Source: an uncultured Acidobacteriota bacterium
GTDB taxonomy: Bacteria; Acidobacteriota; Terriglobia; Acidiferrales; UBA7541
Length of the DNA: 64,000 nucleotides
Assembly (NCBI GenBank): GCA_963757885.1
Contig: CAVWSS010000006.1
Span: forward strand, 305,500-369,499
Direction of reading: 5' to 3'
Shown here: piece after piece, positions 8,848 through 41,861 of the stretch
How positions within the stretch are numbered: position 1 is the first letter of the stretch
Layout of the letters: each line of letters starts with the position of its first letter
The notes under the pieces: generated by a model
What the model saw: the letters and a program-made list of their open reading frames with translations, nothing else
Told to the model about the DNA's origin: nothing
The model's database searches: none
Translations under genes and position numbers: made by a program

Positions 8848-8940
8848 GGGTGCCCCACTTCCGGTTGCGCGCCGGATGGCGCGCTGGTAGATGGAGATGG
8901 ACGGGAGTGGGACGAATGAAATCGGAAGCCTTTAAATTGC
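8848..8940 (+). repeat. Hairpin repeat R1 (type II tail, long form with nested GC palindrome)
   Basis: gggtgccccacttccgg-ttgcgcgccggatggcgcgctgg-tagatggagatggacgggagtggga-cgaatgaaatcggaagcctttaaattgc. The outer stem cccacttccg/cgggagtggg has one U.G pair. Confidence 0.85.
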
Positions 8941-9065
8941 TTACCCCGGGCGTAACAACACACACCTCTCCCTCATCTCCCTCCATTTTGAATTTTTCTT
9001 TAGGAATTAATACGGTGTGTCTTACTTAGCGGATTCCCTGCCGGTCCAGCGGGCCCCACAATCCC

Positions 9066-9389
9066 TTAATTACCCTCTTGCAGCCACCCGTCCAATATCC
9101 TCTGCTGCTCCGGATCCGTATCCATAAACACCACGCCCAATCCCATCCCGGGATTGTTGTACACAATCCTTCCCCGCGACTGAAACACTCCCTTATCCCG
9201 CGTGATCACCACGGTCACGTCCGACCCATCCGGCAGCGGGTTCAACACGTCCAAATAGCATCCCTTGGACGCCAATTCCGAAATCCGGCACTTGAACGTG
9301 CTTTCCGTCTTCAGGTCGGTAACTTTGGCTTCCGCGACAAGCGTTACTCGCGGGCCTCCACGTCGGTTGGCTACTTCGTTTTTAGGCAT
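9066..9389 (-). CDS. PilZ domain protein (putative c-di-GMP receptor)
   Basis: 107 aa. It has an RRGGPR (RxxxR) motif followed by CRISELASKGCYL, with PilZ-like beta-barrel length and spacing. Confidence 0.7.
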   Translation of the reverse strand: MPKNEVANRRGGPRVTLVAEAKVTDLKTESTFKCRISELASKGCYLDVLNPLPDGSDVTVVITRDKGVFQSRGRIVYNNPGMGLGVVFMDTDPEQQRILDGWLQEGN

Positions 9390-9579
9390 TACGGTCCTCT
9401 CTGTTTCAGGGCCTCAGATTTGTCAGGGACGCTGCATCCATCCAAAATGAACGCAGCAGCGAATACAAAAAATTTACCTTGGCCACGCCAGCGTCGCAAG
9501 CCCTACGCTCGCCCCGATAGCCTATCTATAAATCCTTAGCGAACTGCCGCTCTTACCTGCTTCCGTGCGCCCCAGCCAA

Positions 9580-12500
9580 CTACTCACTCAAATTTGAGAA
9601 AATCTGCCGCGACTTCCCGCGTCCGCGATTCTCTAGCGCCGCCACTCTTAGCCGCCTTCCAAAGTGGGCCAACATCTTCCGCAACTTCGCACGCTCGTCC
9701 AAGTCCATTTCCACCAACTCAAATGCCCGCGCCTGCGTGTTCGCGTCCCGCACAATCGCTTGCGCCTTCACTGACTTGGACCGCGGATTCAGCCGCAGCG
9801 TCACTACCGTGCCCGGATGCAGCCGCTGGTCGCTCAACGCCACGCCGCCGCCCAAATTCATTTCTGGCACTGTCACGTCGCAATTCTCTTTCAAATCCAC
9901 GGTCGAGGCTGGAATTGGATCGTCAAACCGCAGCCGCAAATAGCGCCGCTGCCTCACCCAGTTCGAAGCCGGATCTGGGTCCAACGGCTCCAAGGCCAAC
10001 TCATCCGCATTCAATCCGCTCTTGGGCAGGAAATAATTCATCCACTCGGGATCGATGCGCTCCATGGCCTGCGCCGCCACCGTGCGCAATTCCTGCTGCG
10101 AAACCCATCGCCACATTTGCTTCTCTTCCAAAATCTTCCGCAGCACTTTTTCCGCGCCTGCGGTCCGCAAACGTCCCAGCGCTTCAATCGCCTTCAGCTG
10201 CAAATACGGCGTCGCGCCCTGCGGCAAATCGCCTTCGGCCAGCCGGATCAACCGCGCTTCCGCGTCGCGCTCGCCCGCCAGCCCAATTTCATCGATCGCC
10301 AGCGGCTGCACGAAGCTGTCCAGATTGTCGAAAATATCCAGCAGCAAACGGCCCCGTTCCGGCGCGCCGCTACCCGCCAATTGCCGCACGACTCTGTCGT
10401 GTGACGACCGCGGAAATTCCTTCAGCCGCTTCGCCAACAGGAAATCCAGCGTGGCCAGATCGGTCCGCGCCAAAATTCCCACAGTGTCTACCGCCGCATT
10501 CGCTGAGCCGGTATTCAGAACCTCGCGCAAATGGCTGTGCGCCTCCGGCCCCAAATTCTTCAGCGTTTCCAGAGCTAGGTCTGCATCCTCGCGGAACCCG
10601 CTGCGCCCAAACTTCTGCGCCAAAAGTTCCGCCGACGCGCCCGGAACCCGCCTCATCAGCGTCATCAAGCCGGTCGGTACGCTTCCCGACCGCATCGCAT
10701 CATCCAGAAAATCCGCCATGCGGCTTTCCACTTCCACGCGCCCGCGCAAGTTCTTCGCTGCCGCCGGAGCCTCCGCCTCGATGTACTCCACCAGTTCCGA
10801 CGCGCGCTGCATCCCGGCGTAGGACCGCCGTATGCCCGCTTCTTGCGCCAGCCGCACAAACGCCGCGCTCACCAGGCTCCGCAGGTCCGCATCTTTTTCT
10901 TCGCTGAGCTGCACGCCCACTTCCCGAATCGTGGCGACAAATAGCGGCTCATCGAACGATCCATACGAAGGCGCCAATTCCGCAATTCCCAGCGCCGCCG
11001 AGCGCCGTGCGTCCGGCTTCTCGTTCCGGATGCACTCCGCGAAGTTCCGCAAGATATCCTTGACCTTGCCCTCTTCGCCCTTCTTGGTCAGCGCTTCGAT
11101 CGTCGACCGTACATTCGAAATCGGAATGCACCACGCATTCGACGAAAGCAAAATTTCCTGCCGCTTCTCTTCGGGCACTTCCTCCCAGAATTGGTCGGCC
11201 AGCATTTCGGACAGCGGCTGCACTCTCAAGCCCGCCTCGACCATCTTCTCTTCGTGCTTGCCTAGAATCTTGCGCAGGCTCGCGATCTCGCGACTCATTC
11301 CATGCAACATCTGCCGCACCGCGTCCACTTCCACATCGCCGCGTTCAAAGCTTTCCAGCGCGAACCGAATAGCCACCTGCTCCGCCAGCCGCATCAACGT
11401 TGGCTGATCCGCCGATTCGACCGGCGCGTTGGCCGCCATCGCATTCAACGCTTGCGCCAGCGTGAGTCGCGATTTCTTCGGCAGCAGCGCCACTCGCGTC
11501 TGAAATTCTCGCGTCTGCTCGTCCGTGCTTTCCACTTCCTTGCTTACCCGCGCCACGTGCCGCAGCATTTTCAGAATGCCCTGCAGCTCCTCATGGCTCA
11601 TTCCCACCAAACCCGTTTCAACCAGCGTTTCGTCCGCCATGAACGTCGCCGGCGCCTGCACCATCGTGCCGCCGGACACTAGTTCTTGGGCTGTAACTCC
11701 CGTAAAGAACGACGCACCCGCTGGAATTAGCGATTTGCGATCCTTCCGCCGCGATCCCGACCGCACCACGCGCGGCTTGGGTAGCTTGGCAATGTCTTCC
11801 GGCACCGTCGCATCCGACGCGCCCTCAATGCCCTCTTCGAAATCTCCCTCGTCGCCGTAATCCTGATCGTCCATCGCGCCCAGAAAGTCTGCCGGGCTTG
11901 CGGAATTTTGCGTATCTGTGGCCGCTACATCCGCCCCGCTGCCCGCCTGCGCCTGTCCATTCGCCGGACGACGCCGCCGCTTCGATCCAAATCCCCGCTT
12001 CGCCGCAGCCGATCCCGGCGCCAGCATCCCTTCCGGCTCTACCGACCCGTCTCCGCCAACATTCGGTCGCGTGCCTTCCGCCGCCGTAATCAGCTGTAGC
12101 AACCTGTGCGGATCGGAAAAAACTTCGTTGTACTTGCCCTCTTGCAGCCCAAAAGTCTTGGCCGCCAGCGTCGCCGCGACTCCGCCCTTGATCACCGCTG
12201 AATCCGCCGGCACAAAGCAAATCTCGTTAATCTGAATCCCAGGATCGTCTTCCAACGCGGTCTTGAGCTGCATTGCCAGCGCAGACGGCTTCGCTCCGCC
12301 CGTGGGGAAAGCCTTCACCAACGTCGCCAAACTGTGTTGGGTAACTTTCGGGGAAAAGTGAATGCTGGCGATGCCCGCGCTCGATAGCAGCCTGGCAAAA
12401 CTCTTTTCCGCGGCTGCCGACTCGAGTGGAACTCCGTCTAGTAGCAACTGGTCGCCGGAAGCGGAGAGCAGCAAACCCGCCTCGTCTTGCAACCCAATCG

Positions 12501-12645: not shown

Positions 12646-12894
12646 GGGAAATCGACCTATTTTCCCTTAGCCGCAGGATTTATCCGCTAAAATATTGAAT
12701 CCGGCAGGCTTAAGCGACAATGGTACGCAAGTACCAACTGACTGGAATCATTGGACTTAGCACCGTTTTGGGAATTAGCAGTACCTTCTTCGTTAACTTG
12801 CTCCATTCCACTTGCTTAACCATACCGCCTACGTACCAGTACCCACCATAGCGGACGTAGTTTTTCGACGAGGAATTTCTCGAAGGTGATTTTA

Positions 12895-12953
12895 GGTGCC
12901 CATGGGCCGCCTTTGCCCGTGGGGATTTTCAGCCAACCTGCGGGGTCCAAAAC
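12895..12953 (+). repeat. Hairpin repeat R2 (type I tail)
   Basis: ggtgcccatgggccgcctttgcccgtgggga-ttttcagccaacctgcggggtccaaaac. Confidence 0.8.
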
Positions 12954-12986
12954 TACGCAGACTTCTTGCTGTCGAATTTGCTTCTC

Positions 12987-13040
12987 GGGACGCCACCCCT
13001 CGGCTTTAGGGGTGGATTGCTACTACCGAAGACTTTGAGG
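12987..13040 (+). repeat. Hairpin repeat R3 (degenerate type II tail)
   Basis: gggacgccacccct-cggcttt-aggggtgga-ttgctactaccgaagactttgagg. The stem is ccacccct/aggggtgg. Confidence 0.6.
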
Positions 13041-13072
13041 AAACTCCACCGTGATTGGCGACGTCTCGACTT

Positions 13073-13810: not shown

Positions 13811-13833
13811 GGGCCTGACTTTTTTCTTCGCTG

Positions 13834-15234: not shown

Positions 15235-15284
15235 GCTTGACTCCAGTTTAAGTCTTGCGTTTGGTTCGCGTTTGGTTCGTGTTG

Positions 15285-16265: not shown

Positions 16266-16378
16266 TTCTACCTACCTCAATCACAATATCTTAGCCGAAA
16301 CCCCTCCCCCTCGCCACCGCATTTAGACGCCCCCGCCCCACTCCCGTTTCGCCACTGCTTTTGACGTTTCCCGGTTTT

Positions 16379-16440
16379 GGGTGCCCCATGGGCCGCCTTT
16401 GCCCGTGGGGAATTACACCCAAGGTCCGGGGTCCAAAAAA
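16379..16440 (+). repeat. Hairpin repeat R4 (type I tail)
   Basis: gggtgccccatgggccgcctttgcccgtgggga-attacacccaaggtccggggtccaaaaaa. Confidence 0.85.
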
Positions 16441-16456
16441 TACTTCAAGCTTTTTC

Positions 16457-16519
16457 GGGTGCCCCACTTTCTGGTTTTAGAAAGTGGGAAGGAATGTAAT
16501 TCAAAGCCTTTGACTTGGC
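16457..16519 (+). repeat. Hairpin repeat R5 (type II tail, short form; reference copy)
   Basis: gggtgcccc-actttct-ggtttt-agaaagt-gggaaggaatgtaattcaaagcctttgacttgg. It has a perfect 10-bp stem. Confidence 0.85.
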
Positions 16520-16570
16520 CTTTTCCTTCCTCCTAATGCTACATTCCCAAAGTTTTCTAGGAGTAATTCC

Positions 16571-17955: not shown

Positions 17956-18228
17956 ATACTCAGGGACATTGGATGCAAATGCACGTCCAAAGACCTAGAA
18001 ATCGCGCGCACTGTGGAAAGCACTTAGCAAAGTCCTAGGACTATAAACACCTTTCTTGCCAGTACTTCCTTGCACAATTCCGGAAATCCCTTCGGCTCCA
18101 TACATTCCGTTACATCTCCTCCTACCACTCCCAAATATTAATCAACTCTGCCCTTCCTTCTTCACCTCCACGTAAGTGCACAATTACAAAGTCGCATTCG
18201 ATGTTGATGTTGAATTAGCCGTTTCTGT

Positions 18229-18273
18229 GGGTGTCTCACCTGCCGGTTCTGCGGGTGGGGATTTTGCGCGCGG
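18229..18273 (+). repeat. Hairpin repeat R6 (type I-like, diverged head)
   Basis: gggtgtctcacctgc-cggttct-gcgggtgggga-ttttgcgcgcgg. The stem pairs with two U.G wobbles. Confidence 0.6.
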
Positions 18274-18340
18274 ATAGCCTTATCTCTCCCATGCGCGTTT
18301 CCGCCTGGAAACTAGTTTTCCTGAATTTGATTTTGTTTCT

Positions 18341-18396
18341 GGGTGCCCCACCCTTCGGTTTTAAGGGTGGGTGGCAATCATTGATGACCTTGGCGA
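18341..18396 (+). repeat. Hairpin repeat R7 (degenerate type II tail)
   Basis: gggtgccccaccctt-cggtttt-aagggtgggt-ggcaatcattgatgaccttggcg. Confidence 0.7.
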
Positions 18397-20301: not shown

Positions 20302-20353
20302 TCGCCTCCGCGTCCCTCTACGCCCATCCTACTACGTGCGCCCCCTTTTTCTT

Positions 20354-20437
20354 GGGTGGCCCCATGAGCGCTTACGCGCACGGCGCGCCGGCAAATGCCA
20401 GAAAGTGAAAGGAATGAAAATAAACTCGAATTTCAGC
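20354..20437 (+). repeat. Hairpin repeat R8 (degenerate long type II)
   Basis: gggtggccccatgagcgcttacgcgcacggcgcgccggcaaatgccagaaagtgaaaggaatgaaaataaactcgaatttcagc. Confidence 0.55.
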
Positions 20438-21696: not shown

Positions 21697-21708
21697 TTGT
21701 GGTTCTTT

Positions 21709-21786
21709 GGTGCCCAATAGGCCTCTTGCGCGCCGAATGGCGCGCTGATTAATAGGCCCCGTGGGGGTTTCACCCAAATTCCGGGA
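21709..21786 (+). repeat. Hairpin repeat R16 (type I tail, long form with nested GC palindrome)
   Basis: ggtgccc-aataggcc-tcttgcgcgccgaatggcgcgctgatt-aataggcc-ccgtggggg-tttcacccaaattccggga. Confidence 0.75.
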
Positions 21787-21822
21787 CATCGACTACATAG
21801 AATGTTTGGTAGTTGAATTTCT

Positions 21823-21885
21823 GGGTGCCCCACTTTCTGTTTTGAGAAAGTGGGATCGAATGAAATTTAAAGCCTTTGACTTAGC
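21823..21885 (+). repeat. Hairpin repeat R9 (type II tail, short form)
   Basis: gggtgccccactttct-gttttg-agaaagtggga-tcgaatgaaatttaaagcctttgacttagc. Confidence 0.85.
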
Positions 21886-21892
21886 TTTTCCG

Positions 21893-23078
21893 CTAAATCC
21901 TCTCCAAAATCCCCGCCGCTCCCATCCCCCCTCCCACACACATCGTCACCAACCCATACCTCGCCCCTCTTCTCTCCATCTCCCTCAATATCGTCGCCGT
22001 CAACTTCGTTCCCGTGCATCCCAACGGATGCCCCAACGCAATCGCTCCCCCATTCACATTCACGCGCGCGGCATCCAGCCCAGCCACTTTGATCACCGCG
22101 AGCGCCTGCGCCGCAAACGCCTCATTCAACTCAATCACCTCAATATCTTCGAGCCTCAATCCTGCCTGCTTCAACGCCTTCGGTATCGCCAGTGCCGGCC
22201 CAATCCCCATCTCCTCCGGCTTGCATCCCGCCGTCGCGAACGCAATCAACCGCGCAGCGCCCTTCAATCCCCGCGCTCGCGCCGCATCCGCATTCATCAC
22301 CACCGTCGCCGCCGCTCCGTCGCTCGTCTGCGACGAATTTCCCGCCGTCACCACGCCGTGCGCATGAAACGCCGGCTTCAAGTTCCCGAGCGCCTCCATC
22401 GACGTATCCGCCCTCGGACCCTCGTCCGTATCAAACCTCAATTCCCGAGTTACTGGTTTCGATCCGTTCCCGCTCACAAACTCCGTAAACTTCACTTCCA
22501 CCGGCACAATCTCATCCTTAAATCTCCCCGCCGCAATCGCCGCCAGCGCCTTCTTATGACTGGCCAGCGAAAATTTATCCGCCTGCCTCGCGCGTAATTC
22601 CGTATTTCTTCGCCACGTTTTCCGCGGTCAGCCCCATCCCCAAATACGCATCCGGATAGTGATCCATCAGCCATGGATTCGGCGAGATTCGGTTCCCGCC
22701 CATCGGCACCAGGCTCATCGACTCGGTCCCGCCAGCGATAATCAATTCCGCGCGCCCAGCCATAATTCGCTCCGCCGCAATCGCAATCGCCTGCAGCCCC
22801 GACGAGCAAAATCGATTAATCGTCATCGCCGACGCTTCCACCGGCAGCCCCGCCCTTAGCGACGCGATCCGCGCCACATTCATTCCCTGCTCCGCTTCCG
22901 GCATGGCACATCCCAAAATCACATCGTCAACGTCCTTCGCCGCCACTCCCGGCGCGCGTTCCAGCGCCGCGCAAATCGCCGTCGCCGCCAAATCATCCGG
23001 CCTCGTCGACCTCAACGTCCCTCGCGGCGCTTTCCCCACCGCCGTCCTCACCGCACTCACAATCACCGCCTCCGCCAT
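21893..23078 (-). pseudogene. Acetyl-CoA C-acyltransferase (thiolase) interrupted by a +1 frameshift near 22586
   Basis: ORFs 22575..23078 (N-terminal half, [10 protein letters not shown] active-site Cys) and 21893..22507 (C-terminal half, GNSSQTSDGA, CVGGGMG) are contiguous halves. Total length is 1186 nt, which is 3n+1. The downstream frame reads [31 protein letters not shown] directly after ..GITRE. Confidence 0.85.
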
Positions 23079-23157: not shown

Positions 23158-23187
23158 ATGAACAAAATTTAAACTCTTTGACTTTGC
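23158..23187 (+). repeat. Repeat R10 (type II tail only, no hairpin head)
   Basis: atgaacaaaatttaaactctttgactttgc. Confidence 0.55.
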
Positions 23188-23269
23188 TCTTCTTCGTACT
23201 CTTACTATCAATTCCTTACCACTACTAAAACCGGGTTCCGATCACCCCAAGGTCAAAGGAGAACACCCC

Positions 23270-24214: not shown

Positions 24215-26038
24215 TTAAAATACGAACTTCACACCAAGCTGCACCACCCGCGGCCCTCCGCCTCCCAACCCAGGGTTCCCCTGCGCTACATCCGGCGTCG
24301 CCGTGATCAACCCATCCGGCCCCACTCCCGGCGTCACCACGTTATCCGGCAACGCAAAATTGGGATGATTGAAAATGTTGAAAAATTCCATCCTCAATTG
24401 CATATCCAACTTTTCGCGCAGCCTCGTATCTTTGGTCAATGAAAAATCCACATTCCAAAATCCGGGCCCATAAATCTGGTCGCGCCCCAGCGTCCCAAAT
24501 TCCCCAGTCGGCTCCGCAAATGCCGCAGGATTCAAATATCCCGTCGACGGCGTCCAATTCGGCAAAATTGGATTCACTCCAGGGACCACGTCGGGCCGCA
24601 AATGCCCGTTGATTCCAAACTCATCGTCAATAATCGGAATCGGCCGCCCCGACTGCACCGTCATCACCGTATTCAGCTGCCATCCCGTCGCAAGCACCCG
24701 CGGCATGCGGTCGAAACTCGGCACCTCATAATTCAACGCCGCCGTAAACCTGTGCCGCGTGTCGAATGTCGACGGCCCCTTCTCGGCCGCCAAATCATCC
24801 GAATTCTGCGGAAACGCCGCCGTCGCAAAGTTGAAATCGATCCCATCCGACGCGCCATCCAGCGACTTCGAATACACATACGAATAAAATCCCGAGAATC
24901 CGTAAAAATTCTGGAACCTGCCATTCAATTGCAGCGCGTTGTACGTCGAATTCGCGCTGGTGCTGAAAATATCGATCTCCCCGTATCGCGGATTCTCCCC
25001 GTCCTGATTCAAATCGTATAGCCGCGTCAGGTCCGTTCCTTTAGTGCCCACATACCCAATCTCCACCGCGGCGTGCTGCCCGATTTGCTCATCAATATTC
25101 AAGTTCCAGCTATTCACATACGGTGTCTTCAAATTGTGATCGGTCACAAAAATGCTAAACGGCGGCGTCCCCGGCGTAAAAATCGCTCCTGGGGCCACGC
25201 CCGTAAACGCATCCTGCTTAAAATCGAGCGGCAGCACTGGTACCGATCCCACCGGATTCGTCGCGATTCCCGCCGACGTCGTGAAATTCGCGATCATCAA
25301 ATGCTGCGGAATGTAGTCGTAATACAGCCCGTATCCCGCGCGCACCGTCGTGTTATTCCACGGCGTCCACGCAACTCCCAATCGGGGCCCAAAATTGTTC
25401 AGGTCCTTCTTGTACGCTCCGCCAAGCCCTGCCGACCCGACGTGCTGCAGCACCGAGTCTGGCCCTTCGTTCGCCCCAAAATTCCAGAGCAAATTATTCT
25501 TCTCGCTGATCGGCCCAAAATATTCCCAACGCAATCCGTAATTGACCGTCAGATTCGGCCGTATCCGCCAGTCGTCCTGCGCGAAAAACGCCATCCCATT
25601 GTTGTACGTCGTCCGCTGCGCGTTCCCCGAATTCGCCGTAGTGAAGCAGTCGTCGCACTCCGCGTTGCCTAAATAAAATTGCGTCAACACATCCACGATG
25701 CTTTCGGACAGCGTCGTGTCGTTATTCGCCGGTGCGAATCCAATCAGCCCGCGCTCCAAGTTGTCGTTATACGCGCTTACCTCCGCCCGCCTAAACTCCC
25801 CGCCAAACTTCCACGTGTGCGCCCCACGAATCCACGTGTCGCGTGTCTCGCCCGTCGCCTGATTCTTCGCCGTCACCTTCGCGCCCACCACCACCGCGCC
25901 CGAAGGATCCATCACCGTCCCGCGAACACTCCCGCGATACGTCTGCGCCCCCGCCCTCGGCGCACACACTAATCCCGCTAAAATCAGCACCACCGCCACA
26001 AGGAATCCTGCGTACTCCCCGCCACTCTTCTTTCTCAT
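24215..26038 (-). CDS. TonB-dependent-receptor-like outer membrane protein lacking plug and first half of barrel (likely decayed)
   Basis: I start it at the internal ATG 26038 (MRKKSGGEYAGFLVAVVLILAGLVCAPRAGAQ). A truncated CarboxypepD_reg start (GSVRGTVMDPSGAVVVGAKVTAKNQATGETRDT) joins directly to mid-barrel sequence (WIRGAHTWKFGGEFRR). The C-terminal strand is VVQLGVKFVF. Confidence 0.6.
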   Translation of the reverse strand: MRKKSGGEYAGFLVAVVLILAGLVCAPRAGAQTYRGSVRGTVMDPSGAVVVGAKVTAKNQATGETRDTWIRGAHTWKFGGEFRRAEVSAYNDNLERGLIGFAPANNDTTLSESIVDVLTQFYLGNAECDDCFTTANSGNAQRTTYNNGMAFFAQDDWRIRPNLTVNYGLRWEYFGPISEKNNLLWNFGANEGPDSVLQHVGSAGLGGAYKKDLNNFGPRLGVAWTPWNNTTVRAGYGLYYDYIPQHLMIANFTTSAGIATNPVGSVPVLPLDFKQDAFTGVAPGAIFTPGTPPFSIFVTDHNLKTPYVNSWNLNIDEQIGQHAAVEIGYVGTKGTDLTRLYDLNQDGENPRYGEIDIFSTSANSTYNALQLNGRFQNFYGFSGFYSYVYSKSLDGASDGIDFNFATAAFPQNSDDLAAEKGPSTFDTRHRFTAALNYEVPSFDRMPRVLATGWQLNTVMTVQSGRPIPIIDDEFGINGHLRPDVVPGVNPILPNWTPSTGYLNPAAFAEPTGEFGTLGRDQIYGPGFWNVDFSLTKDTRLREKLDMQLRMEFFNIFNHPNFALPDNVVTPGVGPDGLITATPDVAQGNPGLGGGGPRVVQLGVKFVF

Positions 26039-26063
26039 CTCCCCCGCTCCTCCACGCCCCCGC

Positions 26064-26426
26064 TCACTCGACGGTCGCTGCTCGTTCACGAAGTTCCAAC
26101 TTGAAGTTGATCGTCGTATCGCGCCCCGCTTTCACGATCGCTTTCTTCATCATCGACTTAAAATTCGCCGCCTCCACTCTGACCACATACTTGCCCGCCT
26201 CCAAATTAGCGAACGAAAAGTCGCCGTGCGGATTCGCCGTGGTTTCACGCGTCTCGTCCGTCCCCTTCTTCGTTATCGTCACCTTCGCGTTCGGTAACAC
26301 TGCACCCGCAGGATCGGTTACCTCCCCGCGAATATCACCCCGATCCGCTTGCGCCTTGGCTCCCGATGCCAGAGCCACCACACACGCCAACGCTATAGAA
26401 ATCAGTAACGCCACAACTCGCTTCAT
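26064..26426 (-). CDS. Stand-alone secreted carboxypeptidase-regulatory-like (CarboxypepD_reg) domain protein
   Basis: 120 aa: signal peptide + IRGEVTDPAGAVLPNAKVTITKKGTDETRETTANPHGDFSFANLEAGKYVVRVEAANFK. It ends where a TBDR would continue into the plug. Confidence 0.6.
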   Translation of the reverse strand: MKRVVALLISIALACVVALASGAKAQADRGDIRGEVTDPAGAVLPNAKVTITKKGTDETRETTANPHGDFSFANLEAGKYVVRVEAANFKSMMKKAIVKAGRDTTINFKLELRERAATVE

Positions 26427-27502: not shown

Positions 27503-27994
27503 ATGGGAAGTTTCCGCAAGCCGATCATACTCAACTGGGCTGCCGGAAAGGCCGGATGCGAGCTGGTTGAAGGATTCCAAATCAAGTTGATTCAACACGA
27601 AGGGATCAGCCTATGCATCAATCCGCCCAGATTCGATGCAGACGAAACTGAAATCTTCTTTATCGTTTCCAGCACTCATCCGAAAGCAGTTGGACTAGGA
27701 GACGGCGGCATTACCCTCGTTGCAGACGGCCACCCGCAAATCTGTAAGAATCTAAGAGCTACCGCTCCCGTACGCGGGCTTGAAATCCAACAGCACGCCC
27801 CACTTGGGGGCACTAGGCGCATAATGATCGATTCATTCCAGAACGCACAGTTCGCGGCGCAATTCCAGCCTGTGCCCGAGCCTGATAGAGCGAGCGCTGC
27901 AATTGTCATTGAAATGAAGCGTCTATGGGCTCCTAATTTCATGTTTGTAGTTCCCGTTTCGGAAAGTACTTCCGTCGCTTCTCACGTTGACTGA
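27503..27994 (+). CDS. Hypothetical protein, no recognisable family (low-GC cassette gene 1)
   Basis: An AGGAG RBS lies 7 nt upstream of ATG 27503. 163 aa. Local GC is clearly below the window average. Confidence 0.55.
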   Translation: MGSFRKPIILNWAAGKAGCELVEGFQIKLIQHEGISLCINPPRFDADETEIFFIVSSTHPKAVGLGDGGITLVADGHPQICKNLRATAPVRGLEIQQHAPLGGTRRIMIDSFQNAQFAAQFQPVPEPDRASAAIVIEMKRLWAPNFMFVVPVSESTSVASHVD

Positions 27995-28484
27995 CGCGCG
28001 AGATCGTCTGCCCTCGACTCCCTTTAACTCTGTGATAAGCTCCCGCCGCGTGCCACCTATCCTGGAAGACCGCAAACTAGAAATTCAGCTAACCGAATAC
28101 CAAAAAGCACAGGATTCGGCGCAACATCACGATTCTCTTCTCTGGACTGTGGTCGGAATTCTTACATCTGGCATTGCGGCTTTATTTGGCTTTGCGTTGG
28201 AATACTACGATGGCCGGCATCCAAAGTGGATGTTCGGTTTGCTGGCCTCTTTGGGAATGGTATTCAGTCTTCTAATCGCGTTATTTGTTCGTAGCTTCTC
28301 AAATATAAGCCAGCAAAAATACGACCGGTGCAAAGAAATTGAAGAGGATCTCGGCATGAAACAGCATCGGGGTCTTCGTTGTTGGGACTCGCAAAGATTC
28401 GTAGTCTACATGCTAAGCAGCGCATTCTTTGTCATTTGGCTGATCCTTCTATGCGCACATCTGTGTTCCCAAGCTCCGTCGTAA
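27987..28484 (+). CDS. Hypothetical 3-TM membrane protein (low-GC cassette gene 2)
   Basis: 165 aa. A TTG or GTG start overlaps the stop of the upstream ORF. An amphipathic LTEYQKAQDSAQHHDSLLW lead-in is followed by TM1, TM2, a charged helix (QQKYDRCKEIEEDLG) and TM3. Lines sampled in this gene were about 33-43% GC. Confidence 0.55.
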   Translation: MTDARDRLPSTPFNSVISSRRVPPILEDRKLEIQLTEYQKAQDSAQHHDSLLWTVVGILTSGIAALFGFALEYYDGRHPKWMFGLLASLGMVFSLLIALFVRSFSNISQQKYDRCKEIEEDLGMKQHRGLRCWDSQRFVVYMLSSAFFVIWLILLCAHLCSQAPS

Positions 28485-28496
28485 CCTCGCCCCGGA

Positions 28497-30905
28497 CTAA
28501 TTCCTCAGCGCCTTCCCCGTCTTCAAAGTGTATCCAATCCTCTCCTGCGTCTTCCTCTCCCCGCACAAACTCACAAACGCCTCCCGCTCCAAATCCAGTG
28601 CATACTGCTCACTCACCAACTGCGGCGCGCTCAACTCGCCTCCCGCCAGCACATGCGCCAATTTCCTTGCCACCAACGCGTCATACTCCGAAATAAATTC
28701 GCCGCGCAGCATCATATGTATCGCCAGCTTCGCCGCCGCAATCAACTCTTCTCCTAGAACGCGCACCTCCGCGCCACCCCCCGCGTCACGCACCGGGGCC
28801 CTATACTCACTCCTCGCCAATCCCAGCACCGTCTCCTTCGCATCCGCCACCAATCGATCCCTATTCATGGCCACCGAGTCCGACCGGCGCATATACCCCA
28901 GCTCCACCGCCTCCGCCGCGCTCGTCGACACCTTCGCCATCGCAATCGTTTCAAACACCGGCTTGTACGCGTGAAACAAATCCAAGCTCTCCCCGCCTGA
29001 CGCATGCTCATTCGCGCGAATCATCATTTCCTTCGTTCCGCCGCCCGCCGGTATCAACCCCACTCCCGCCTCCACCAGCCCCATATACGTCTCCGCCGCC
29101 GCGTGAATCTTCGCGCCATGCAAACTAATCTCGCATCCGCCTCCCAGCGCCATTCCCTGCGGCGCAATCACCACCGGCTTCGGCGCATATTTGATCGCCA
29201 TATTCACGCGCTGAAATTCCCGCACCGCCGCGTGCAGATCGTCCCACTCCTGCTCCTGCGCGCTCACTAGGAGCAGCATCAAATTCGCGCCCACCGAAAA
29301 ATTGGCCGCCTGATTGGCGATGATCATGGCCTCAAAATCGGTGGCCAGCCGCTTCAGTCCCGCGTGAATCATCGACACAATGTCGCCGCCGATTGAATTC
29401 ATCTTGGAGTGAAACTCGCAGCAAACCACTCCGTCTCCCAAATCGATCAGGCTCGCGCCTACATTCGACTGCACCACTTTTGTTCGTTCTTGCAGCTCCT
29501 TCAAAATTAAAATTCCCGGCGGCCGCTCCTCGGGCACCATCTTTCCCGCGCTGACCACATCGAAATACTTCTTCTCGCCCTTCGCGCTCTCATAAAAGGA
29601 TTTCGCGCCGCCGTTCAGCAACTTCTCCACCAGCGACGGCCGCTGATAACCCGCCGCCTCCAGCCGCGCTGCCATCTTCTCCACTCCCACTGCATCCCAA
29701 ATCTCAAACGGACCCTGCTCCCACCCAAATCCCCACCGCATCGCCCGGTCCACATCCACCACGCGATCAGCAATTTCCGGCACGCGCATCGCCGCGTACC
29801 AACACGTCCTGCTCACGCTCGCCCACAAAAATCGCGACGCCTTATCCGCCTTCTCGCTCCCCTGCATCGCCGGCCCCATCAACGCCAGCAATCTCTTCCG
29901 CGTCCCTTCAATCCCCTTCGCCGCCTCAATTGACCCAAATCTCGCCTTCGTGCGCGGTCGGTATTCCAACGTCTTCCAATCCAGCGCCACAATTTCCTTC
30001 TCCCCGCCCGCGACGCGAACCTGCTGATAAAACCCTTTGCCGGCCTTCTCGCCCAGCCACCCGCGCCGGATCATCTCCTGCACAAACTTCGGCAACTCAT
30101 ACATCCCTCGCGACTCATCCTCCGTCGCGCGCTCATGAATGTTCCGCACCACATTCGCAATAATGTCGAGCCCCACAATATCCGCCGTGCGAAATGTCGC
30201 GCTCTTCGGCCATCCCGCAATCGGCCCAGTGCACGCGTCCACTTCCTCCACGGACATTTCCAGCTCCGCCATCAGCCGCATTGCGTTCATCAGCGAAAAA
30301 GTCCCAATGCGATTGGCAATAAAATTCGGCGTATCCTTCGCTCTCACCACACCTTTGCCCAGTCGCCGGTCGCAAAATTCTCCCAGCACTTGCCAACACA
30401 CTTTCGCGCGCGTCTGCGGCCCTGGTATCAACTCCACCAATTTCATGTACCGTGGCGGATTGAAAAAATGCGTCCCTGCAAAATGCTTCTGAAAGTCTTC
30501 CGATCTTCCCTCCGCAATCGAATGAATCGGCAGTCCGCTCGTATTTGTCGAAACGATCGTCCCCAGCCCGCCTAAACTTTTCCACGCGCTCCAGCAGCCG
30601 CGCTTGATCTCCAGCTTTTCCGCCACCGCCTCCACAATCCAATCGGCCTTCGCGCACCAATCCAGGTTGTCTTCAAAATTTCCGATCGTAATCAACCTCG
30701 CCACATCCGCGGCAAAAAATGCGGCCGGTTTCGCCTTCTTCGCGGCTTCCAATCCCGTCCGTGCCACCGCATTGCGATCCTTGCCTTCGCCCGGCGCCAC
30801 AATATCCAGCAAAAAACACGACACCCCCGCATTCGCCAGATGCGCCGCAATCCGCGCGCCCATCGTCCCCGCGCCTAGTACCGCTACCCGCTCAATCCCC
30901 GCCAT
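28497..30905 (-). CDS. 3-hydroxyacyl-CoA dehydrogenase / enoyl-CoA hydratase fusion (FadN/FadB-like)
   Basis: 802 aa. It has an N-terminal Rossmann fold (VAVLGAGTMGARIAAHLA) and a C-terminal crotonase region (ANFSVGANLMLLL). Confidence 0.9.
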   Translation of the reverse strand: MAGIERVAVLGAGTMGARIAAHLANAGVSCFLLDIVAPGEGKDRNAVARTGLEAAKKAKPAAFFAADVARLITIGNFEDNLDWCAKADWIVEAVAEKLEIKRGCWSAWKSLGGLGTIVSTNTSGLPIHSIAEGRSEDFQKHFAGTHFFNPPRYMKLVELIPGPQTRAKVCWQVLGEFCDRRLGKGVVRAKDTPNFIANRIGTFSLMNAMRLMAELEMSVEEVDACTGPIAGWPKSATFRTADIVGLDIIANVVRNIHERATEDESRGMYELPKFVQEMIRRGWLGEKAGKGFYQQVRVAGGEKEIVALDWKTLEYRPRTKARFGSIEAAKGIEGTRKRLLALMGPAMQGSEKADKASRFLWASVSRTCWYAAMRVPEIADRVVDVDRAMRWGFGWEQGPFEIWDAVGVEKMAARLEAAGYQRPSLVEKLLNGGAKSFYESAKGEKKYFDVVSAGKMVPEERPPGILILKELQERTKVVQSNVGASLIDLGDGVVCCEFHSKMNSIGGDIVSMIHAGLKRLATDFEAMIIANQAANFSVGANLMLLLVSAQEQEWDDLHAAVREFQRVNMAIKYAPKPVVIAPQGMALGGGCEISLHGAKIHAAAETYMGLVEAGVGLIPAGGGTKEMMIRANEHASGGESLDLFHAYKPVFETIAMAKVSTSAAEAVELGYMRRSDSVAMNRDRLVADAKETVLGLARSEYRAPVRDAGGGAEVRVLGEELIAAAKLAIHMMLRGEFISEYDALVARKLAHVLAGGELSAPQLVSEQYALDLEREAFVSLCGERKTQERIGYTLKTGKALRN

Positions 30906-31400
30906 TTATCTTTCTGCTACTCCTCTCCCTCGCGCGCCATCCAAATCCGTGCTCACCCCTCTCCGCCTCCCGCGTCAAATCCCACCGAAGAGCCAAACAG
31001 TTTGACGATGACGCTGCAACGCCCCAGTCACCGATTAAATTGCGTTTGGCTCTTCTAATTTTTTGAACTTTCCCCGCCTTTCTCCTCTTCTACCTCCACT
31101 TTCACTTTCTTCCCTCCGCCCTTCCCCGTTTTATTCAACCAATCCTCGAGCGACTTCCTCAATCTCTCCGGCTTCACACTCAATCCCGCCTCAATCCTGC
31201 CCTCTCCTACCGGCAACGTGTCATCAAACTCCGCCGCCCCCGTAAAATTTCTCATCGCAAAGGCATCCAGCCACTCCAGACGGACAATCCTTCTTTTCGC
31301 CTCCTCCCACCTCCACCCACACCCTCATCTTCCTCGCAAACATCCCGCGAGTATATCTCGCTCCCATCTTTGAGTTTGCTTTTGCCTTAGAAGTTTCTGC

Positions 31401-31516
31401 GGGTGCCACAAATGCGTTTTGGGCGTTCACAGAACGCACAGACGAACCGCAAGGTTCGTTCTCATATCAATGGACGCAGGTGGGAAGGCAGCACGTGAAA
31501 GCTTAAGTGTTTTTGC
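31401..31516 (+). repeat. Hairpin repeat R11 (long, diverged; nested GNRA hairpin)
   Basis: gggtgccacaaatgcg...acgaacc-gcaa-ggttcgt...caggtgggaaggcagcacgtgaaagcttaagtg. Confidence 0.5.
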
Positions 31517-31522
31517 TTTTCC

Positions 31523-31584
31523 GGGTGCCCCACTTCCTGGCGTCAGGAAGTGGAATCGAATGAAATTTAAAGCCTTCGCTTTGC
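31523..31584 (+). repeat. Hairpin repeat R12 (type II tail, short form)
   Basis: gggtgccccacttcctg-gcgt-caggaagtgga-atcgaatgaaatttaaagccttcgctttgc. The stem sequence differs from R5 and R9 by compensated changes. Confidence 0.85.
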
Positions 31585-31609
31585 TCGTCCTAACGGTCCG
31601 GCCTCAACT

Positions 31610-34114: not shown

Positions 34115-34135
34115 CGGGCTTCTCCTTCCGTCTCT

Positions 34136-34190
34136 GGGTGCCCCATGCGCCGGTTTTGCGCGTGGGGACTTACATCCAAATTCCGGGTCC
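34136..34190 (+). repeat. Hairpin repeat R13 (type I tail)
   Basis: gggtgccccatgcgc-cggtttt-gcgcgtgggga-cttacatccaaattccgggtcc. Confidence 0.8.
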
Positions 34191-34505
34191 ACTGCGACGT
34201 GTAGAGTTTTGCCTTGCTACTCAATCAGATGCCCTTCCATTCCTCCCATCTCCGCTATTCGCCCTGTTCTAAGGTGTTTACGTCCCTCCCACTTCCTTTT
34301 CGTTTCTCCTTCCTTCGTCCGCTTACGAACACCCCCGTCCCCTCACCGCTACATCCAATTTGGCCCGCTTCGCTTGCGATTGATTCTCTGTTTTCTTGGT
34401 GTGACTTCGTTCTCCCTTTCCTTCTCTTCCCCTCTCCCCCGTAACCTCCCCGCCACCCGTTCCACATCTTGCAATTACCCCCCTCCCTGACCTAGACTTC
34501 CCTAT

Positions 34506-36429: not shown

Positions 36430-36431
36430 TC

Positions 36432-36842: not shown

Positions 36843-36874
36843 ATAAAAAAGGCCGCCCAATTCACCGGGCGGCC
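36841..36874 (-). terminator. Rho-independent terminator of the 2-oxoacid dehydrogenase operon (hairpin shared with convergent + genes)
   Basis: On the minus strand: ggccgccc-ggtgaatt-gggcggcc followed by ttttttattt. Confidence 0.8.
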
Positions 36875-36902
36875 TCTTATCAAACAGGTTTTTGAAACGA
36901 AG

Positions 36903-38402: not shown

Positions 38403-38459
38403 GTCCCTCTCCTCGGTCTCTTCCCTTTTTCAGCTTTCCCTCTGCGACTCTGCTTTTCC

Positions 38460-38547
38460 GGGTGCCCCACCTTCGGTTGCGCGCCGTAGGCGCGCTGATA
38501 AATGGACGAAAGTGGGATCGAATGAAATTTAGAGTCTTTGACTTTGC
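38460..38547 (+). repeat. Hairpin repeat R14 (type II tail, long form with nested GC palindrome) inside the E1beta-E2 intercistronic gap
   Basis: gggtgccccaccttcgg-ttgcgcgccgtaggcgcgctgat-aaatggacgaaagtggga-tcgaatgaaatttagagtctttgactttgc. Confidence 0.85.
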
Positions 38548-38572
38548 TTTTCCCTCGCGAAACTCTCGGTTC

Positions 38573-39547
38573 CTAGTATCTCGCCAGCTCCCTTGCTGCC
38601 TCAACCACCTTCCCCGCGTTGGGCAAAAACCTCTCCTCCAACGGAGGCGCGTACGGCACTGGCGTGTCGAGCGACGTCACCCTCACCACCGGCCCATCCA
38701 AATCCTCAAACGCTTCCTCGCAAATAATCTGCGCAATCTCTCCTGCAATCCCGCCCGTCTTTGTGTCCTCGTGCACTACCATCAGTTTATTCGTTTTCTT
38801 CACTGACGCGACAATCGTTTCCTTGTCCAGCGGCAACAAAGTACGCAGGTCGATCACTTCCGCGTCGATCCCTTCCTTCTCTAATTCCGCCGCAGCCTCC
38901 ATCGACGTGTGCGCCATCGCCGCGTACGTCAATATCGTCAAGTCCTTCCCTTCGCGTCGCACCACCGCTTTCCCCAGCGGCACTGTGTACTCTTCCTTCG
39001 GCAATTCCTCCTTAATTCGCCGATACAAAAATTTGTGCTCGAAGAAAAGCACCGGATTATTGTCCCGCACCGCCGACTTCAGCAGCCCCTTCGCGTCATA
39101 CGGCGTCGACGGATAAACCACCTTCAGTCCCGGCGTATGCACAAAATACATTTCCGGATTCGCCGAATGAAATGGGCCCCCGCGCACTCCGCCTCCCGAC
39201 GGCCCTCTCAACACCATCGGTGCCGGCGCACCCCACAAGTAGTGCCCCTTAGCCACAAAATTGGTCACCTGATTGAAGCAGCATGCAATGAAATCGATAA
39301 ACTGCATCTCCGCGATCGGACGCAATCCCAAATAACTCATCCCGCAAGCCGCGCCCACGATCGCCGTCTCGCTGATCGGCGTATCGATTACTCGCTCCGG
39401 CCCAAAGCGGTCCAGCAGCCCCTCGGTCGCCTTGAACGCGCCGCCGTATATCCCAATATCCTCGCCCATCGCGACCACCGCCGGATCGCGTTCCATTTCC
39501 TCAAACATTGCCTGCCGGATCGCTTCCAGCATCGTCACCGGAGCCAT
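38573..39547 (-). CDS. 2-oxoacid dehydrogenase E1 component, beta subunit
   Basis: 324 aa. It is transketolase-like, with a typical E1beta N-terminus (MLEAIRQAMFEEMERDPAVVAMGEDIG). Confidence 0.92.
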   Translation of the reverse strand: MAPVTMLEAIRQAMFEEMERDPAVVAMGEDIGIYGGAFKATEGLLDRFGPERVIDTPISETAIVGAACGMSYLGLRPIAEMQFIDFIACCFNQVTNFVAKGHYLWGAPAPMVLRGPSGGGVRGGPFHSANPEMYFVHTPGLKVVYPSTPYDAKGLLKSAVRDNNPVLFFEHKFLYRRIKEELPKEEYTVPLGKAVVRREGKDLTILTYAAMAHTSMEAAAELEKEGIDAEVIDLRTLLPLDKETIVASVKKTNKLMVVHEDTKTGGIAGEIAQIICEEAFEDLDGPVVRVTSLDTPVPYAPPLEERFLPNAGKVVEAARELARY

Positions 39548-40947
39548 TAGCGTCGCCCCTTCTTGGCACTCGATTTACTCTTCTTCGCCCCGTTCGATCG
39601 ACCGGCTGGCTTCCCCGATCCATTCGCAAGCGATCCGCTCGACTTCCTCGCCGCCGATGAAACCGGTGAACCCGCCGCCCCCGGCCCTACACTCACCGCC
39701 TCGCCTTCCTCTTCCTTCGTGACCAGCGCATTCACGTGACCCGGCTCCGGTGCGTACGCCGCGCGCTCCTCGCGCGTCTCCCGGCTCTCCGGCTCGCACT
39801 GACCGTAATCTTCCACATTCCACTTCGCCTCGCACACTGTCCGCGGCGGCATCACTTCTTCCTTCGGTCTTTGCCAATCCGCTTCAATCGCGTGGCAACC
39901 GTTCTCGCAATAAACTCCCTGCTCGGCCAATTCCGGCGGCGGCAGCGGCGAATTCTCCGCAAACTCCAATTCCCCCTTCAGCAGATCCGCAATTCGTTTC
40001 TCCACCTTCTCCTTATCGCCCGCGCTCCACAGCTTCCGCTCCGTCAAATACTTTTCATAACGCGCAATCGGATCCCGCTGCTCCCAAAATTCCCTCATCT
40101 CCTTGGGCACATACTCAGCCGGGTCGTGCTGCGCATGTCCGCGCATCCGGTGCGTCTTCGCTTCGATCAACACGGGCCCCTCGCCCTTCCTGCACAAATC
40201 CACCGCGCGCCGCGAAGTTTCAAACACCGCCGCCACGTCGTTCCCATCCACAATCATGGTGTTGATTCCATACGCCCGCCCGCGATCCGCCAAATCCCGC
40301 AGCGGCACCTGCTTGCTCACATGCGTTGAATACGCCCACTGGTTATTCTCCAACACCAGCACCAACGGAGCCTTCTGTGACGCCGCTAAATTCAATCCCT
40401 CGTGAAACGCGCCCGTTGAACTCCCGCCATCTCCGATCCACGTCATGGCCACAATGTTCTGCCCCAGATAACGCCCCGCCATCCCCACTCCGGTCATCAC
40501 CGGAATCAAATCGCCCAGCATCGAAATCGGCGACACGATGTGCAAATTCTTCAGATCCCCAAAATGGCTCGTCCCGTCTTTTCCCTGTGTCGGCGACGTG
40601 TACTTGGCCATGTGCTGCGTGAAAATGTCCCGCGGCGGGACGCCCTTCACCAACAGCGCCCCAATATTTCGGATCATCGGTGCGAGCCAATCGCGCTTCT
40701 CCAGCGCGTACGCCGTTCCCACCGAAATCCCTTCCTGCCCCAAACTTGAATACAGCCCGCCCACAATCTTGTTCTGCCGGAACAGCTTCCCCATCTGGTC
40801 TTCGACCGCCCGGTTCAGCCGCATGTAGTAATACAAATCGAGATGCTGCTCACGCGTAATCCCCCGCGCGCCATTCCCCGCCGCGCCCGACCCATTCACC
40901 CGTTTCCCCGTTGCCTTCGAACTCATCTCCTCACTCCCTCTCCCCAT
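39547..40947 (-). CDS. 2-oxoacid dehydrogenase E1 component, alpha subunit (TPP-binding) with ~100-aa charged C-terminal extension
   Basis: 466 aa with the TPP motif GDGGSSTGAFHEGLNLA. Its stop overlaps the E1beta start (TAATG). Confidence 0.9.
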   Translation of the reverse strand: MGRGSEEMSSKATGKRVNGSGAAGNGARGITREQHLDLYYYMRLNRAVEDQMGKLFRQNKIVGGLYSSLGQEGISVGTAYALEKRDWLAPMIRNIGALLVKGVPPRDIFTQHMAKYTSPTQGKDGTSHFGDLKNLHIVSPISMLGDLIPVMTGVGMAGRYLGQNIVAMTWIGDGGSSTGAFHEGLNLAASQKAPLVLVLENNQWAYSTHVSKQVPLRDLADRGRAYGINTMIVDGNDVAAVFETSRRAVDLCRKGEGPVLIEAKTHRMRGHAQHDPAEYVPKEMREFWEQRDPIARYEKYLTERKLWSAGDKEKVEKRIADLLKGELEFAENSPLPPPELAEQGVYCENGCHAIEADWQRPKEEVMPPRTVCEAKWNVEDYGQCEPESRETREERAAYAPEPGHVNALVTKEEEGEAVSVGPGAAGSPVSSAARKSSGSLANGSGKPAGRSNGAKKSKSSAKKGRR

Positions 40948-41003
40948 TCTCTCAAATTACCATCCTCCTCGCTCCCGCCGTTGCTTATATCTCGCCGCGA
41001 CTC

Positions 41004-41756
41004 TTATCCCGCCTTCACCGCCAGCGCGCTCTCCGCCTTTGCCTTCTTCATGTCCATTCCAAAAACATCCCCAAAATGGCTCACCACCGCATCCCTCACC
41101 TTCTCCATATCCACACCGCGCCCCAACACCTTCTCCAGCGACGTCGCCCGCTTCCCTACCAACCCACACGGCACAATCAAATCAAAGTGCCTCAAATCCG
41201 TGGCCACATTAAACGCAAACCCGTGCGACGTAACCCACCGGCTCAAATGCACTCCCAGCGCTCCCAACTTCTCGCTTCCTTGCCGCGTATCCACCCAAAC
41301 TCCATGCATCCCATCTTCGCGATGCGCCGCCACTCCAAAATCTGCCGCTACCCGAATCATCACTTCTTCAAGCTGTGCCACATACCAACGCACATCCCGT
41401 CGGTGCTCCGTCAAATCCACAATCGGGTAGCCAACAATCTGCCCCGGCCCGTGATACGTAATGTCCCCGCCCCGATCCGTCAGCCGGTACTCAATCCCCA
41501 TTTGCTTCAGCACTCGCTCGCTCGCCCGCAAATTCCCCGCGTCGCCATTCCGCCCCAGCGTGATCACCGGTGGATGCGCGCACATCAGCAACACATCCGG
41601 CACTCGCCCCGCTTTCCTACCCTCCACAAACAGCTTCTGTAGCTCACACCCCGCCCCATACTTCACCACCCCCACATCCACCCACCACCCGTCTCTTAAT
41701 TTATGGTTCACGCCGGTTTTGCCTTTGATTAGGAACTTCCTGCGGTTCGCCCACAC
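41004..41756 (-). CDS. lipB: Lipoyl(octanoyl) transferase
   Basis: 250 aa with HPPVITLGRNG, RGGDITYHGPGQIVGYPI and KLGALGVHLSRWVTSHGFAFNV. The exact start is uncertain. Confidence 0.88.
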   Translation of the reverse strand: MWANRRKFLIKGKTGVNHKLRDGWWVDVGVVKYGAGCELQKLFVEGRKAGRVPDVLLMCAHPPVITLGRNGDAGNLRASERVLKQMGIEYRLTDRGGDITYHGPGQIVGYPIVDLTEHRRDVRWYVAQLEEVMIRVAADFGVAAHREDGMHGVWVDTRQGSEKLGALGVHLSRWVTSHGFAFNVATDLRHFDLIVPCGLVGKRATSLEKVLGRGVDMEKVRDAVVSHFGDVFGMDMKKAKAESALAVKAG

Positions 41757-41777
41757 GTGACGTGCGAGAGATTTTTC

Positions 41778-41839
41778 GGGTGCCCCACTTTCTGGTGTTA
41801 GAAAGTGGGAAAGAATGAAACCTAAAGCCTTTGACTTGC
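41778..41839 (+). repeat. Hairpin repeat R15 (type II tail, short form) between lpdA and lipB
   Basis: gggtgccccactttct-ggtgtt-agaaagtggga-aagaatgaaacctaaagcctttgacttgc. Confidence 0.85.
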
Positions 41840-41861
41840 TTTCCTCTCCGAGGTCCTCAAA

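Follow-up and report, generated by a model that had tools for sequence, protein, structure and literature searches.

The closest described counterparts of the system reported here are the repetitive extragenic palindromic (REP) elements with their REP-associated tyrosine transposases (RAYTs) and the transposons of the IS200/IS605 family. Like the transposases of IS200/IS605, known RAYTs work on single-stranded DNA that has folded, are specific for one of the two strands, and use a motif located 5' of the hairpin foot (PMC3333891, PMC8266576, PMC3971601). Processing of single-stranded REPs in Escherichia coli is strand specific (PMC3333891, PMC8266576); RAYT activity has been shown in vitro only, and its coupling to replication stands as a hypothesis in the REP literature (PMC3333891, PMC8266576). 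IS200/IS605 elements use the lagging-strand template for both excision and insertion (PMC3333891, PMC3971601). Inverted repeats have been reported to flank the RAYT-like "TIRYT" genes (Di Nocera et al. 2013, PMC3733652) and the class 3 TnpA_Y1 genes (Quentin et al. 2018, PMC6006769) of Terriglobus, Granulicella, Acidobacterium, and Koribacter. Here, we analyzed a 64,000-nucleotide (nt) stretch of contig CAVWSS010000006.1 from an uncultured Acidobacteriota bacterium of the order Acidiferrales (hereafter, the window), in which an intergenic hairpin repeat bearing a GGGTGC tag recurs in a single orientation. We consider these repeats to be, in good probability, the REP elements of an acidobacterial REP/RAYT system, a family undescribed before. 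The REP/RAYT class is known; the REP family and its lineage are new, and the strand polarity described below has not been reported before.

The identification came through relatives. When one genome per species was scanned for the tag, the hairpin, and GAATG, 36 loci were returned, 32 of them in assemblies assigned to Acidobacteriaceae, Terracidiphilus, Granulicella, Korobacteraceae, and Acidiferrales; viral contigs scanned for the repeat pattern gave no matches. In five of five independent RAYT loci (L008, L038, L041, L042, and L044; L numbers denote loci outside the window), the GGGTGCCCCA hairpin brackets the RAYT gene on both sides in inverted arrangement. The tags point outward on both flanks in L008, L041, L042, and L044, and the downstream flank copy of L038 lacks a good tag (model positions 11 to 38). 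This is the standard "REPtron" layout, and because inverted hairpins of the same family flank RAYT genes in relatives, we assign the window repeats to the REP elements. An open reading frame (ORF) beside the copies in L008 resembled E. coli YafM, a likeness that served as a lead only. That ORF and the other RAYT-locus proteins match Pfam Y1_Tnp, and their best match among solved structures is E. coli TnpA_REP (4ER8), with an alignment over residues 10 to 143 that includes the HxH and YxxxNP motifs. Against the NCBIfam model for REP-associated tyrosine transposases (NF047646; cut-off, 80 bits), all four tested proteins scored 91 to 102 bits (97 bits for the L008 protein), and the same proteins reached 22 to 32 bits with the transpos_IS200 model, below its cut-off of 55. 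RAYT homologues were abundant, some of those in Terracidiphilus being named RAYT by NCBI. One RAYT was present as an identical protein with unchanged gene neighbors in 10 samples (one lineage), all representing one locus, which indicates a single-copy fixed gene.

Like REP elements, the repeats are short, mostly intergenic, and present in many copies, possess a compensatory hairpin with a motif at its 5' foot, and are accompanied in relatives by a RAYT with inverted flanks. Inverted doublets, known as REPINs or bacterial interspersed mosaic elements (BIMEs), were not found in the window, which has no copies on the - strand. REP singletons and head-to-tail dimers have been described (PMC3733652), so that doublets are not obligatory for each family. 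No open-access text was found that contains the motif in a bacterial context, and none was found in which the orientation of REPs is tied to the replication strand. The initial annotation of this DNA, made from the sequence letters, had recognized no named family. As a sequence family the repeat is indeed absent from Rfam and from the searched literature, but its class is a known one, so that a match to described repeats exists at the level of the class and not of the sequence family; it was the comparison with REP/RAYT catalogues proposed there that led to the identification.

The protein matches also bear on a different origin, namely, that the repeats are nonautonomous derivatives of IS200/IS605 elements, or miniature inverted-repeat transposable elements (MITEs) of the type with terminal inverted repeats (TIRs), moved by an ordinary multicopy transposase. 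Hairpin ends, strand bias, and a likeness to the ends of single-stranded DNA transposons would fit such an origin, as would the weak complementarity of the type I ends (TTTTGGGTGCCCC ... GGGGTCCAAAA) noted when reading the sequence. It is nevertheless extremely unlikely, in that the RAYT-locus proteins score above the cut-off of the RAYT equivalog model and below that of the IS200 model, the associated gene is single copy in a fixed context, and the polarity is opposite to the sense reported for IS200/IS605 (PMC3333891, PMC3971601). Searches of the window and the comparison of insertion sites showed neither a TnpB or DDE transposase nor a long TIR or target-site duplication. Derivation from IS200/IS605 was rejected on the failed IS200 model, the inverted hairpins of the RAYT flanks, and the opposite polarity; a TIR-type MITE was rejected because neither TIRs nor target-site duplications appeared in the repeat search and the comparison of filled and empty sites. 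The initial annotation was right that the repeat is real and modular and that it is neither a CRISPR array nor an insertion sequence nor a TIR-type MITE.

Each unit is laid out as a T-rich lead, the GGGTGC tag, a stem-loop, and then, on the 3' side, one of two conserved, lineage-specific tails, both of which exist as first described. The tag is nearly invariant across copies and the first four stem pairs (CCCA/TGGG) are invariant, with tag and stem base conserved at the family level or above; the upper stem varies freely yet stays complementary, and from genome to genome the stems differ but keep their complementarity. The type I tail holds CACCC, which is complementary to the GGGTG of the tag, and the type II tail reads GAATGAAATTTAAAGCCTTTGACTT. 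In long variants, a nested GCGCGCC-N-GGCGCGC hairpin is present with TGATAAATGGAC behind it (window copies 8848, 21709, and 38460), and such variants with the nested hairpin recur in relatives L061 and L063. Across the 79 copies that related genomes yielded, the helix is 98.6% paired and shows 175 double-sided compensatory changes, which none of 500 shuffles matched. Stem position 5 is often T.G, a base pair on the tagged strand only, and in folding calculations type I copies were 2 to 3 kcal/mol better on the tagged strand, with type II copies being symmetric.

Strong helix covariation, wobble pairs confined to the tagged strand, and the better folding of type I copies on that strand would also be expected of a structured RNA family (a small RNA or a cis-regulatory element) made from the + strand, of which one sense is functional and the orientation hence fixed. 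We regard this as very improbable. Over the whole window, Rfam matched nothing at gathering scores, and over positions 8000 to 42500 it gave no relevant match at an E value of ≤5, a check that the initial annotation had suggested and that covered the Acido-1 and Acido-Lenti-1 motifs. The TTGACT of tail II lacks a consistent -10 element behind it, and a promoter scan found nothing there. Copies lie 5' of genes, 3' of genes, within an operon, and inverted around RAYT genes, they are present or absent between close relatives, and one is in frame inside prmC; a structured RNA would, moreover, leave the match between orientation and GC skew unexplained. The repeats may still have a secondary role as RNA. 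Tail II was considered separately as a promoter and rejected: its TTGACT resembles a -35 element, yet there is no consistent -10, the promoter scan was empty, and most tails face the 3' ends of genes.

Within the window, the GGGTGCCCCAY core at ≤1 mismatch was found nine times, always on the + strand, compared with a mean of 1.7 and a maximum of 5 in shuffled sequence (none of 100 shuffles reached nine). A covariance model trained on 14 short copies and run unfiltered on both strands of the whole window gave seven strong + strand matches (16453, 41774, 21819, 31519, 18337, 34132, and 16375) and six weaker ones (8844, 18225, 38456, 12993, 12890, and 31397). Its - strand matches were solely untagged palindromic stems belonging to the same + strand copies, and between 42 and 64 kb it matched nothing on either strand. 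Whole-unit nhmmer profiles recovered six type II copies, three type I copies, the long copy at 21705, and partial copies at 18226 and 18336, and a repeat finder returned 60- to 70-nt families at the positions named by the initial annotation. Reading the sequence beyond the profiles added a degenerate long copy (20345 to 20425) and a remnant consisting of tail II only (23160 to 23192). Between 8.8 and 41.9 kb, the total thus comes to 15 hairpin copies and one remnant reduced to its tail, every one on the + strand (Table 1). The 16 copies originally claimed are thus borne out as 15 plus a remnant, as are their common strand and the empty stretch from 42 to 64 kb; the covariance model check called for there recovered the + strand copies and no tagged copy on the - strand.

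All 15 hairpin copies, spread over 33 kb, are intergenic. Pfam-supported gene calls place them in convergent gaps (8848 and 21709/21823), in divergent gaps (16379/16457, 20353, 23160, and 34136, the third being the remnant), and otherwise between co-directional - strand genes, including copy 38460 inside a 2-oxoacid dehydrogenase operon, so that the varied gene contexts first reported hold as well. Copies occur as singletons or in head-to-tail tandems and never as inverted doublets. The four tandems of type I followed by type II that had been listed (12895/12987, 16379/16457, 18229/18341, and 21709/21823) were confirmed, and a further pair (31401/31523) resembles them. Because the copies share only 10 intergenic gaps, the chance of a single orientation within the window is about 0.002 rather than 2^-15; the orientation is improbable, as had been argued, but not by the measure of 16 independent draws. 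The stronger evidence for polarity is that from other genomes rather than from the window.

Table 1. Copies of the repeat in the window, with strand and gene context
Coordinates	Strand	Copy	Context
8841..8940	+	Long REP copy, tag GGGTGCCCCAC, nested GCGCGCC...GGCGCGC hairpin, type II tail	Convergent gap between gene 7991-8821 (+) and PilZ gene 9066-9389 (-)
12888..12953	+	Type I copy, tag shortened (AGGTGCCCA)	Between co-directional - strand genes
12980..13040	+	Degenerate copy (GGGACGCCACCCC...GGGGTGGA)	Tandem behind type I copy
16373..16440	+	Type I copy, tag GGGTG pairs with tail CACCC	Divergent gap, ispH (-) / SDR gene (+)
16449..16525	+	Type II copy	Tandem behind type I copy, ispH/SDR divergent gap
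18222..18300	+	Degenerate type I-like copy (GGGTGTCTCACC...GGGTGGGGATTTTG)	
18335..18395	+	Intact tag and hairpin, degenerate tail	Directly past acyl-CoA dehydrogenase stop codon (gene -)
20345..20425	+	Degenerate long copy (GGGTGGCCCCATGAGCG...GAAAGGAATGAAAATAAAC)	Divergent gap
21703..21800	+	Long copy, nested GCGCGCC hairpin, type I tail	Convergent gap
21816..21891	+	Type II copy	Tandem behind long copy
23160..23192	+	Remnant, type II tail without hairpin	Divergent gap, thiolase (-) / hydrolase (+)
31394..31495	+	Degenerate long copy (GGGTGCCACAA...GGTGGGAAGG)	
31516..31591	+	Type II copy	Directly past MacB/FtsX stop codon (gene -)
34130..34195	+	Type I copy (R13)	Divergent gap, MacB (-) / PEPCK (+)
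38454..38553	+	Long type II copy (R14)	Between E1-beta and E2 genes, 2-oxoacid dehydrogenase operon
41771..41846	+	Type II copy	Between E3 and lipoate ligase genes (both -)

The orientation of the repeats follows GC skew. In the window the skew is extreme, ranging from -0.03 to -0.37 per 2 kb and being -0.10 or stronger beyond 4 kb; it persists through + strand genes and is therefore a property of the chromosome strand. In relatives L054, L057, and L060 to L063, the absolute skew is 0.27 to 0.37 and persists through genes of both strands. A census of 77 nonduplicate model hits, with skew measured over the surrounding 6 kb, showed that at an absolute skew of ≥0.08 the tagged strand was the C-rich strand for 35 of 35 copies outside RAYT flanks (16 loci). 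RAYT-flank copies were concordant in 9 of 14 cases at this threshold; all five discordant copies were flank copies, as follows from the two flanks being inverted by design. Below 0.08, there were a few discordant nonflank copies, the clearest in L009 and L013 at about +0.05; orientation cannot be judged in weak-skew genomes. Eight further metagenome contigs carry the type II unit, and seven of these were concordant at an absolute skew of 0.21 to 0.37, with the eighth having no usable skew. The polarity first noticed in the window thus holds there and extends to other genomes.

Gene orientation was rejected as the cause of this polarity because each strand of the skewed loci carries about half of the coding sequence (50:50), with no gene-strand bias accompanying the skew; that orientation is uniform despite such even coding agrees with its initially claimed independence of the flanking genes. 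In convergent and divergent gaps, transcription gives no orientation cue, and all such sites at clear skew (about 17, by our own reading of the tables) were concordant. Hairpin stability was also considered, type I copies favoring the tagged strand and type II copies being symmetric, and it is insufficient as the whole cause because only type I copies differ between strands. Genes enter through a second rule, which is weaker than the skew rule: gaps between co-directional genes held a REP in 15 of 40 cases where the genes lay on the G-rich strand versus 2 of 38 where they lay on the C-rich strand (Fisher p = 7e-4). The depletion between C-rich-strand genes fits the empty stretch from 42 to 64 kb, where + strand operons dominate.

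This enrichment between co-directional genes of one strand, together with the many copies lying directly past the stop codons of - strand genes, raises the question of whether the repeats are terminators or stabilizers of mRNA 3' ends, an action that has been reported for REPs in other bacteria (PMC3733652). Orientation would then be set by the genes served, and the link to skew would be a by-product. We find this highly unlikely, since no T-run follows the hairpin on either strand, at least four of the sites are divergent promoter gaps, and orientation is uniform though the genes of skewed loci are divided 50:50; the few copies that do follow C-rich-strand genes (in L060, L061, and L041) obey the skew rule and not a gene rule. 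A terminator scan, furthermore, skipped the REP hairpins and called one strong terminator only, at 36847 to 36878, with a canonical 14-bp stem and a T-run. A role as intrinsic terminators was accordingly rejected on the missing T-run, the silent scan, and the several copies in divergent gaps. The called site is part of a bidirectional terminator (36843 to 36880; stem GGCCGCCC/GGGCGGCC, flanked by runs of A and T) that separates a small + strand ORF from the E2 gene, and it shows what ordinary terminators of this genome look like.

The repeats are gained and lost between close relatives. In the closest relative available (L054), with an E1-beta protein 98% identical and DNA about 87% identical to those of the window, the gap between the E1-beta and E2 genes is 22 nt, compared with 170 nt with R14 in the window, where the boundaries of the R14 insertion are not fixed to the base, the flanks having diverged. 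R13 is missing from the orthologous L054 site, and the E3/LplA site carries a REP with a stem and tail unlike those of the window copy. The nearly identical strains L057 and L061 have flanks and tail II in common and different hairpins: L057 (about 760 to 850) has a short hairpin with a degenerate tag, and L061 (about 440 to 620) has a long hairpin with a nested GCGCGCC stem and an extra type I-like unit. In L041, a REP at 12988 to 13035 (-) lies in frame inside prmC, where it encodes LGAPSLNRSLIQGWES directly before the S-adenosylmethionine (SAM)-binding motif; this copy reads in the same direction as its host gene, which is on the C-rich strand, and still obeys the skew rule.

Such turnover must be set against the idea that the copies serve the chromosome as polar signals, in the manner of KOPS, Chi, or single-strand initiation sites, which the host selects on one replication strand and the RAYT only maintains. 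Polarity without exception at clear skew in several genera, conservation of the tag and stem base at the family level or above, and a RAYT that is single copy and vertically fixed are all compatible with that idea. It remains very improbable in our judgment: density is very uneven (15 copies in 33 kb and then none in 22 kb, with far fewer in a close relative), copies come and go between strains, and inverted doublets occur in weak-skew genomes (L009).

We instead favor a mechanism in which the hairpin unit of these REP elements would fold in single-stranded DNA and the RAYT, a domesticated HUH/Y1 transposase of the TnpA_REP type, would bind, cut, and rejoin the hairpins in one strand only, an action that would spread and reshuffle the units. 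As a general rule, G richness marks the leading strand, whose sequence is that of the lagging-strand template. The tagged strand, being C-rich, would by the usual rule be the leading-strand template and usually also the transcribed template strand, that is, the strand presumably least often single-stranded in replication and transcription. Single-stranded exposure would be the simplest account of where copies lie, and it would cover the skew rule and the gene rule together. Such exposure might operate in two ways. If the enzyme reads the 5'-tagged strand, copies might persist only where that strand is shielded from exposure and excision; if it reads the complementary strand (the hairpin and then 3' GCACCC), units might enter exposed single strands, as IS608 does. 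A third possibility is that units are joined to the 3' ends of Okazaki fragments, as suggested by the strand-transfer activity seen in vitro (PMC8266576). The polarity may even be a natural record of RAYTs moving REPs in vivo, whether by joining onto nascent lagging-strand 3' ends, considered here because the sense of the polarity is opposite to that of IS200/IS605, or by survival where the active strand is never single-stranded, or, in a stronger version, through co-option of the repeats as replication-strand-specific signals in Acidobacteriota, whose GC skew is exceptionally strong; this broader proposal is speculative, and we think it rather doubtful.

Several points weigh against parts of this interpretation. 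No RAYT gene was found in the 64-kb window, such that a cognate enzyme in the source genome is assumed, the GGGTGC tag differs from the GTAG and CGTC tags of the catalogued REP superfamilies, and the usual REP arrangement in inverted doublets is absent from the window. Replication direction was taken from GC skew alone; no dnaA, origin, terminus, or skew switch was found in the relatives' loci examined, and gene-strand bias gives no independent check. The counts of gap occupancy rest on crude gene calls, and the polarity would be opposite to that of IS200/IS605 if the 5'-tagged strand is the active one.

Several other features of the window appear worth recording. The thiolase gene is split into two ORFs (21893 to 22507 and 22575 to 23078, -), and the outer-membrane barrel gene at 24215 to 26426 (-) begins only at position 282 of its Pfam profile and has another ORF upstream of it; frameshifts, pseudogenes, or assembly errors may account for both cases, and genes are likewise split in the related long-read assemblies L039 and L042. 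A 68-nt direct repeat with 78% identity (48200 to 48267 and 51918 to 51985) brackets a 1,238-amino-acid ORF (48117 to 51833), which is adjoined by a TetR-family gene (51931 to 52527, -). About 900 nt between a SAM hydroxide adenosyltransferase gene and a FadB-like gene (27600 to 28500) have only weak ORFs, an atypical composition, and no copy of the repeat.

With IS200/IS605 elements (IS608 and ISDra2), the system has in common Y1 HUH enzymes, hairpins that are subterminal and have a 5' guide, single-strand intermediates, and an orientation bias relative to replication (PMC3333891, PMC3971601). The active top strand of IS200/IS605 lies on the lagging-strand template, whereas here the 5'-tagged strand is the C-rich strand; the acidobacterial proteins, in addition, fail the IS200 equivalog model, and the elements contain no transposase gene. 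The flank motifs of the TIRYT and class 3 TnpA_Y1 genes (GGGGWSAS; CnGA foot) do not match GGGTGCCCCA; the corresponding papers note only one small repeat family and leave polarity undescribed (PMC3733652, PMC6006769). With the REPs and BIMEs of E. coli and their TnpA_REP (4ER8), the acidobacterial units share short intergenic hairpins, a conserved motif 5' of the stem, and a single-copy HUH/Y1 gene bracketed by REPs (here, in relatives). They differ in the tag (GTAG there and GGGTGC here), in the conserved 25- to 30-nt tails, in the arrangement (inverted BIME pairs there, singletons or head-to-tail tandems in the window), and in an orientation locked to GC skew, of which the REP literature searched contains no report. 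Pseudomonas REPINs are inverted REP doublets (PMC3116915), an arrangement seen here only in some weak-skew relatives; inverted doublets with outward tags, as in REPINs, lie at positions 1005 to 1165 of L009 and 3165 to 3205 of L013, both from weak-skew Acidobacteriaceae genomes. An orientation without exception relative to strand asymmetry at clear skew, combined with a transcription bias, makes this lineage a natural data set for models of single-strand exposure, and, for annotation, these conserved intergenic hairpins should not be called RNA genes or terminators. Together, our analyses extend REP/RAYT systems to acidobacterial repeats with a new tag, which share with the Pseudomonas REPIN/RAYT system (Bertels and Rainey; PMC3116915) a vertically inherited, single-copy RAYT and the turnover of repeats within a lineage.

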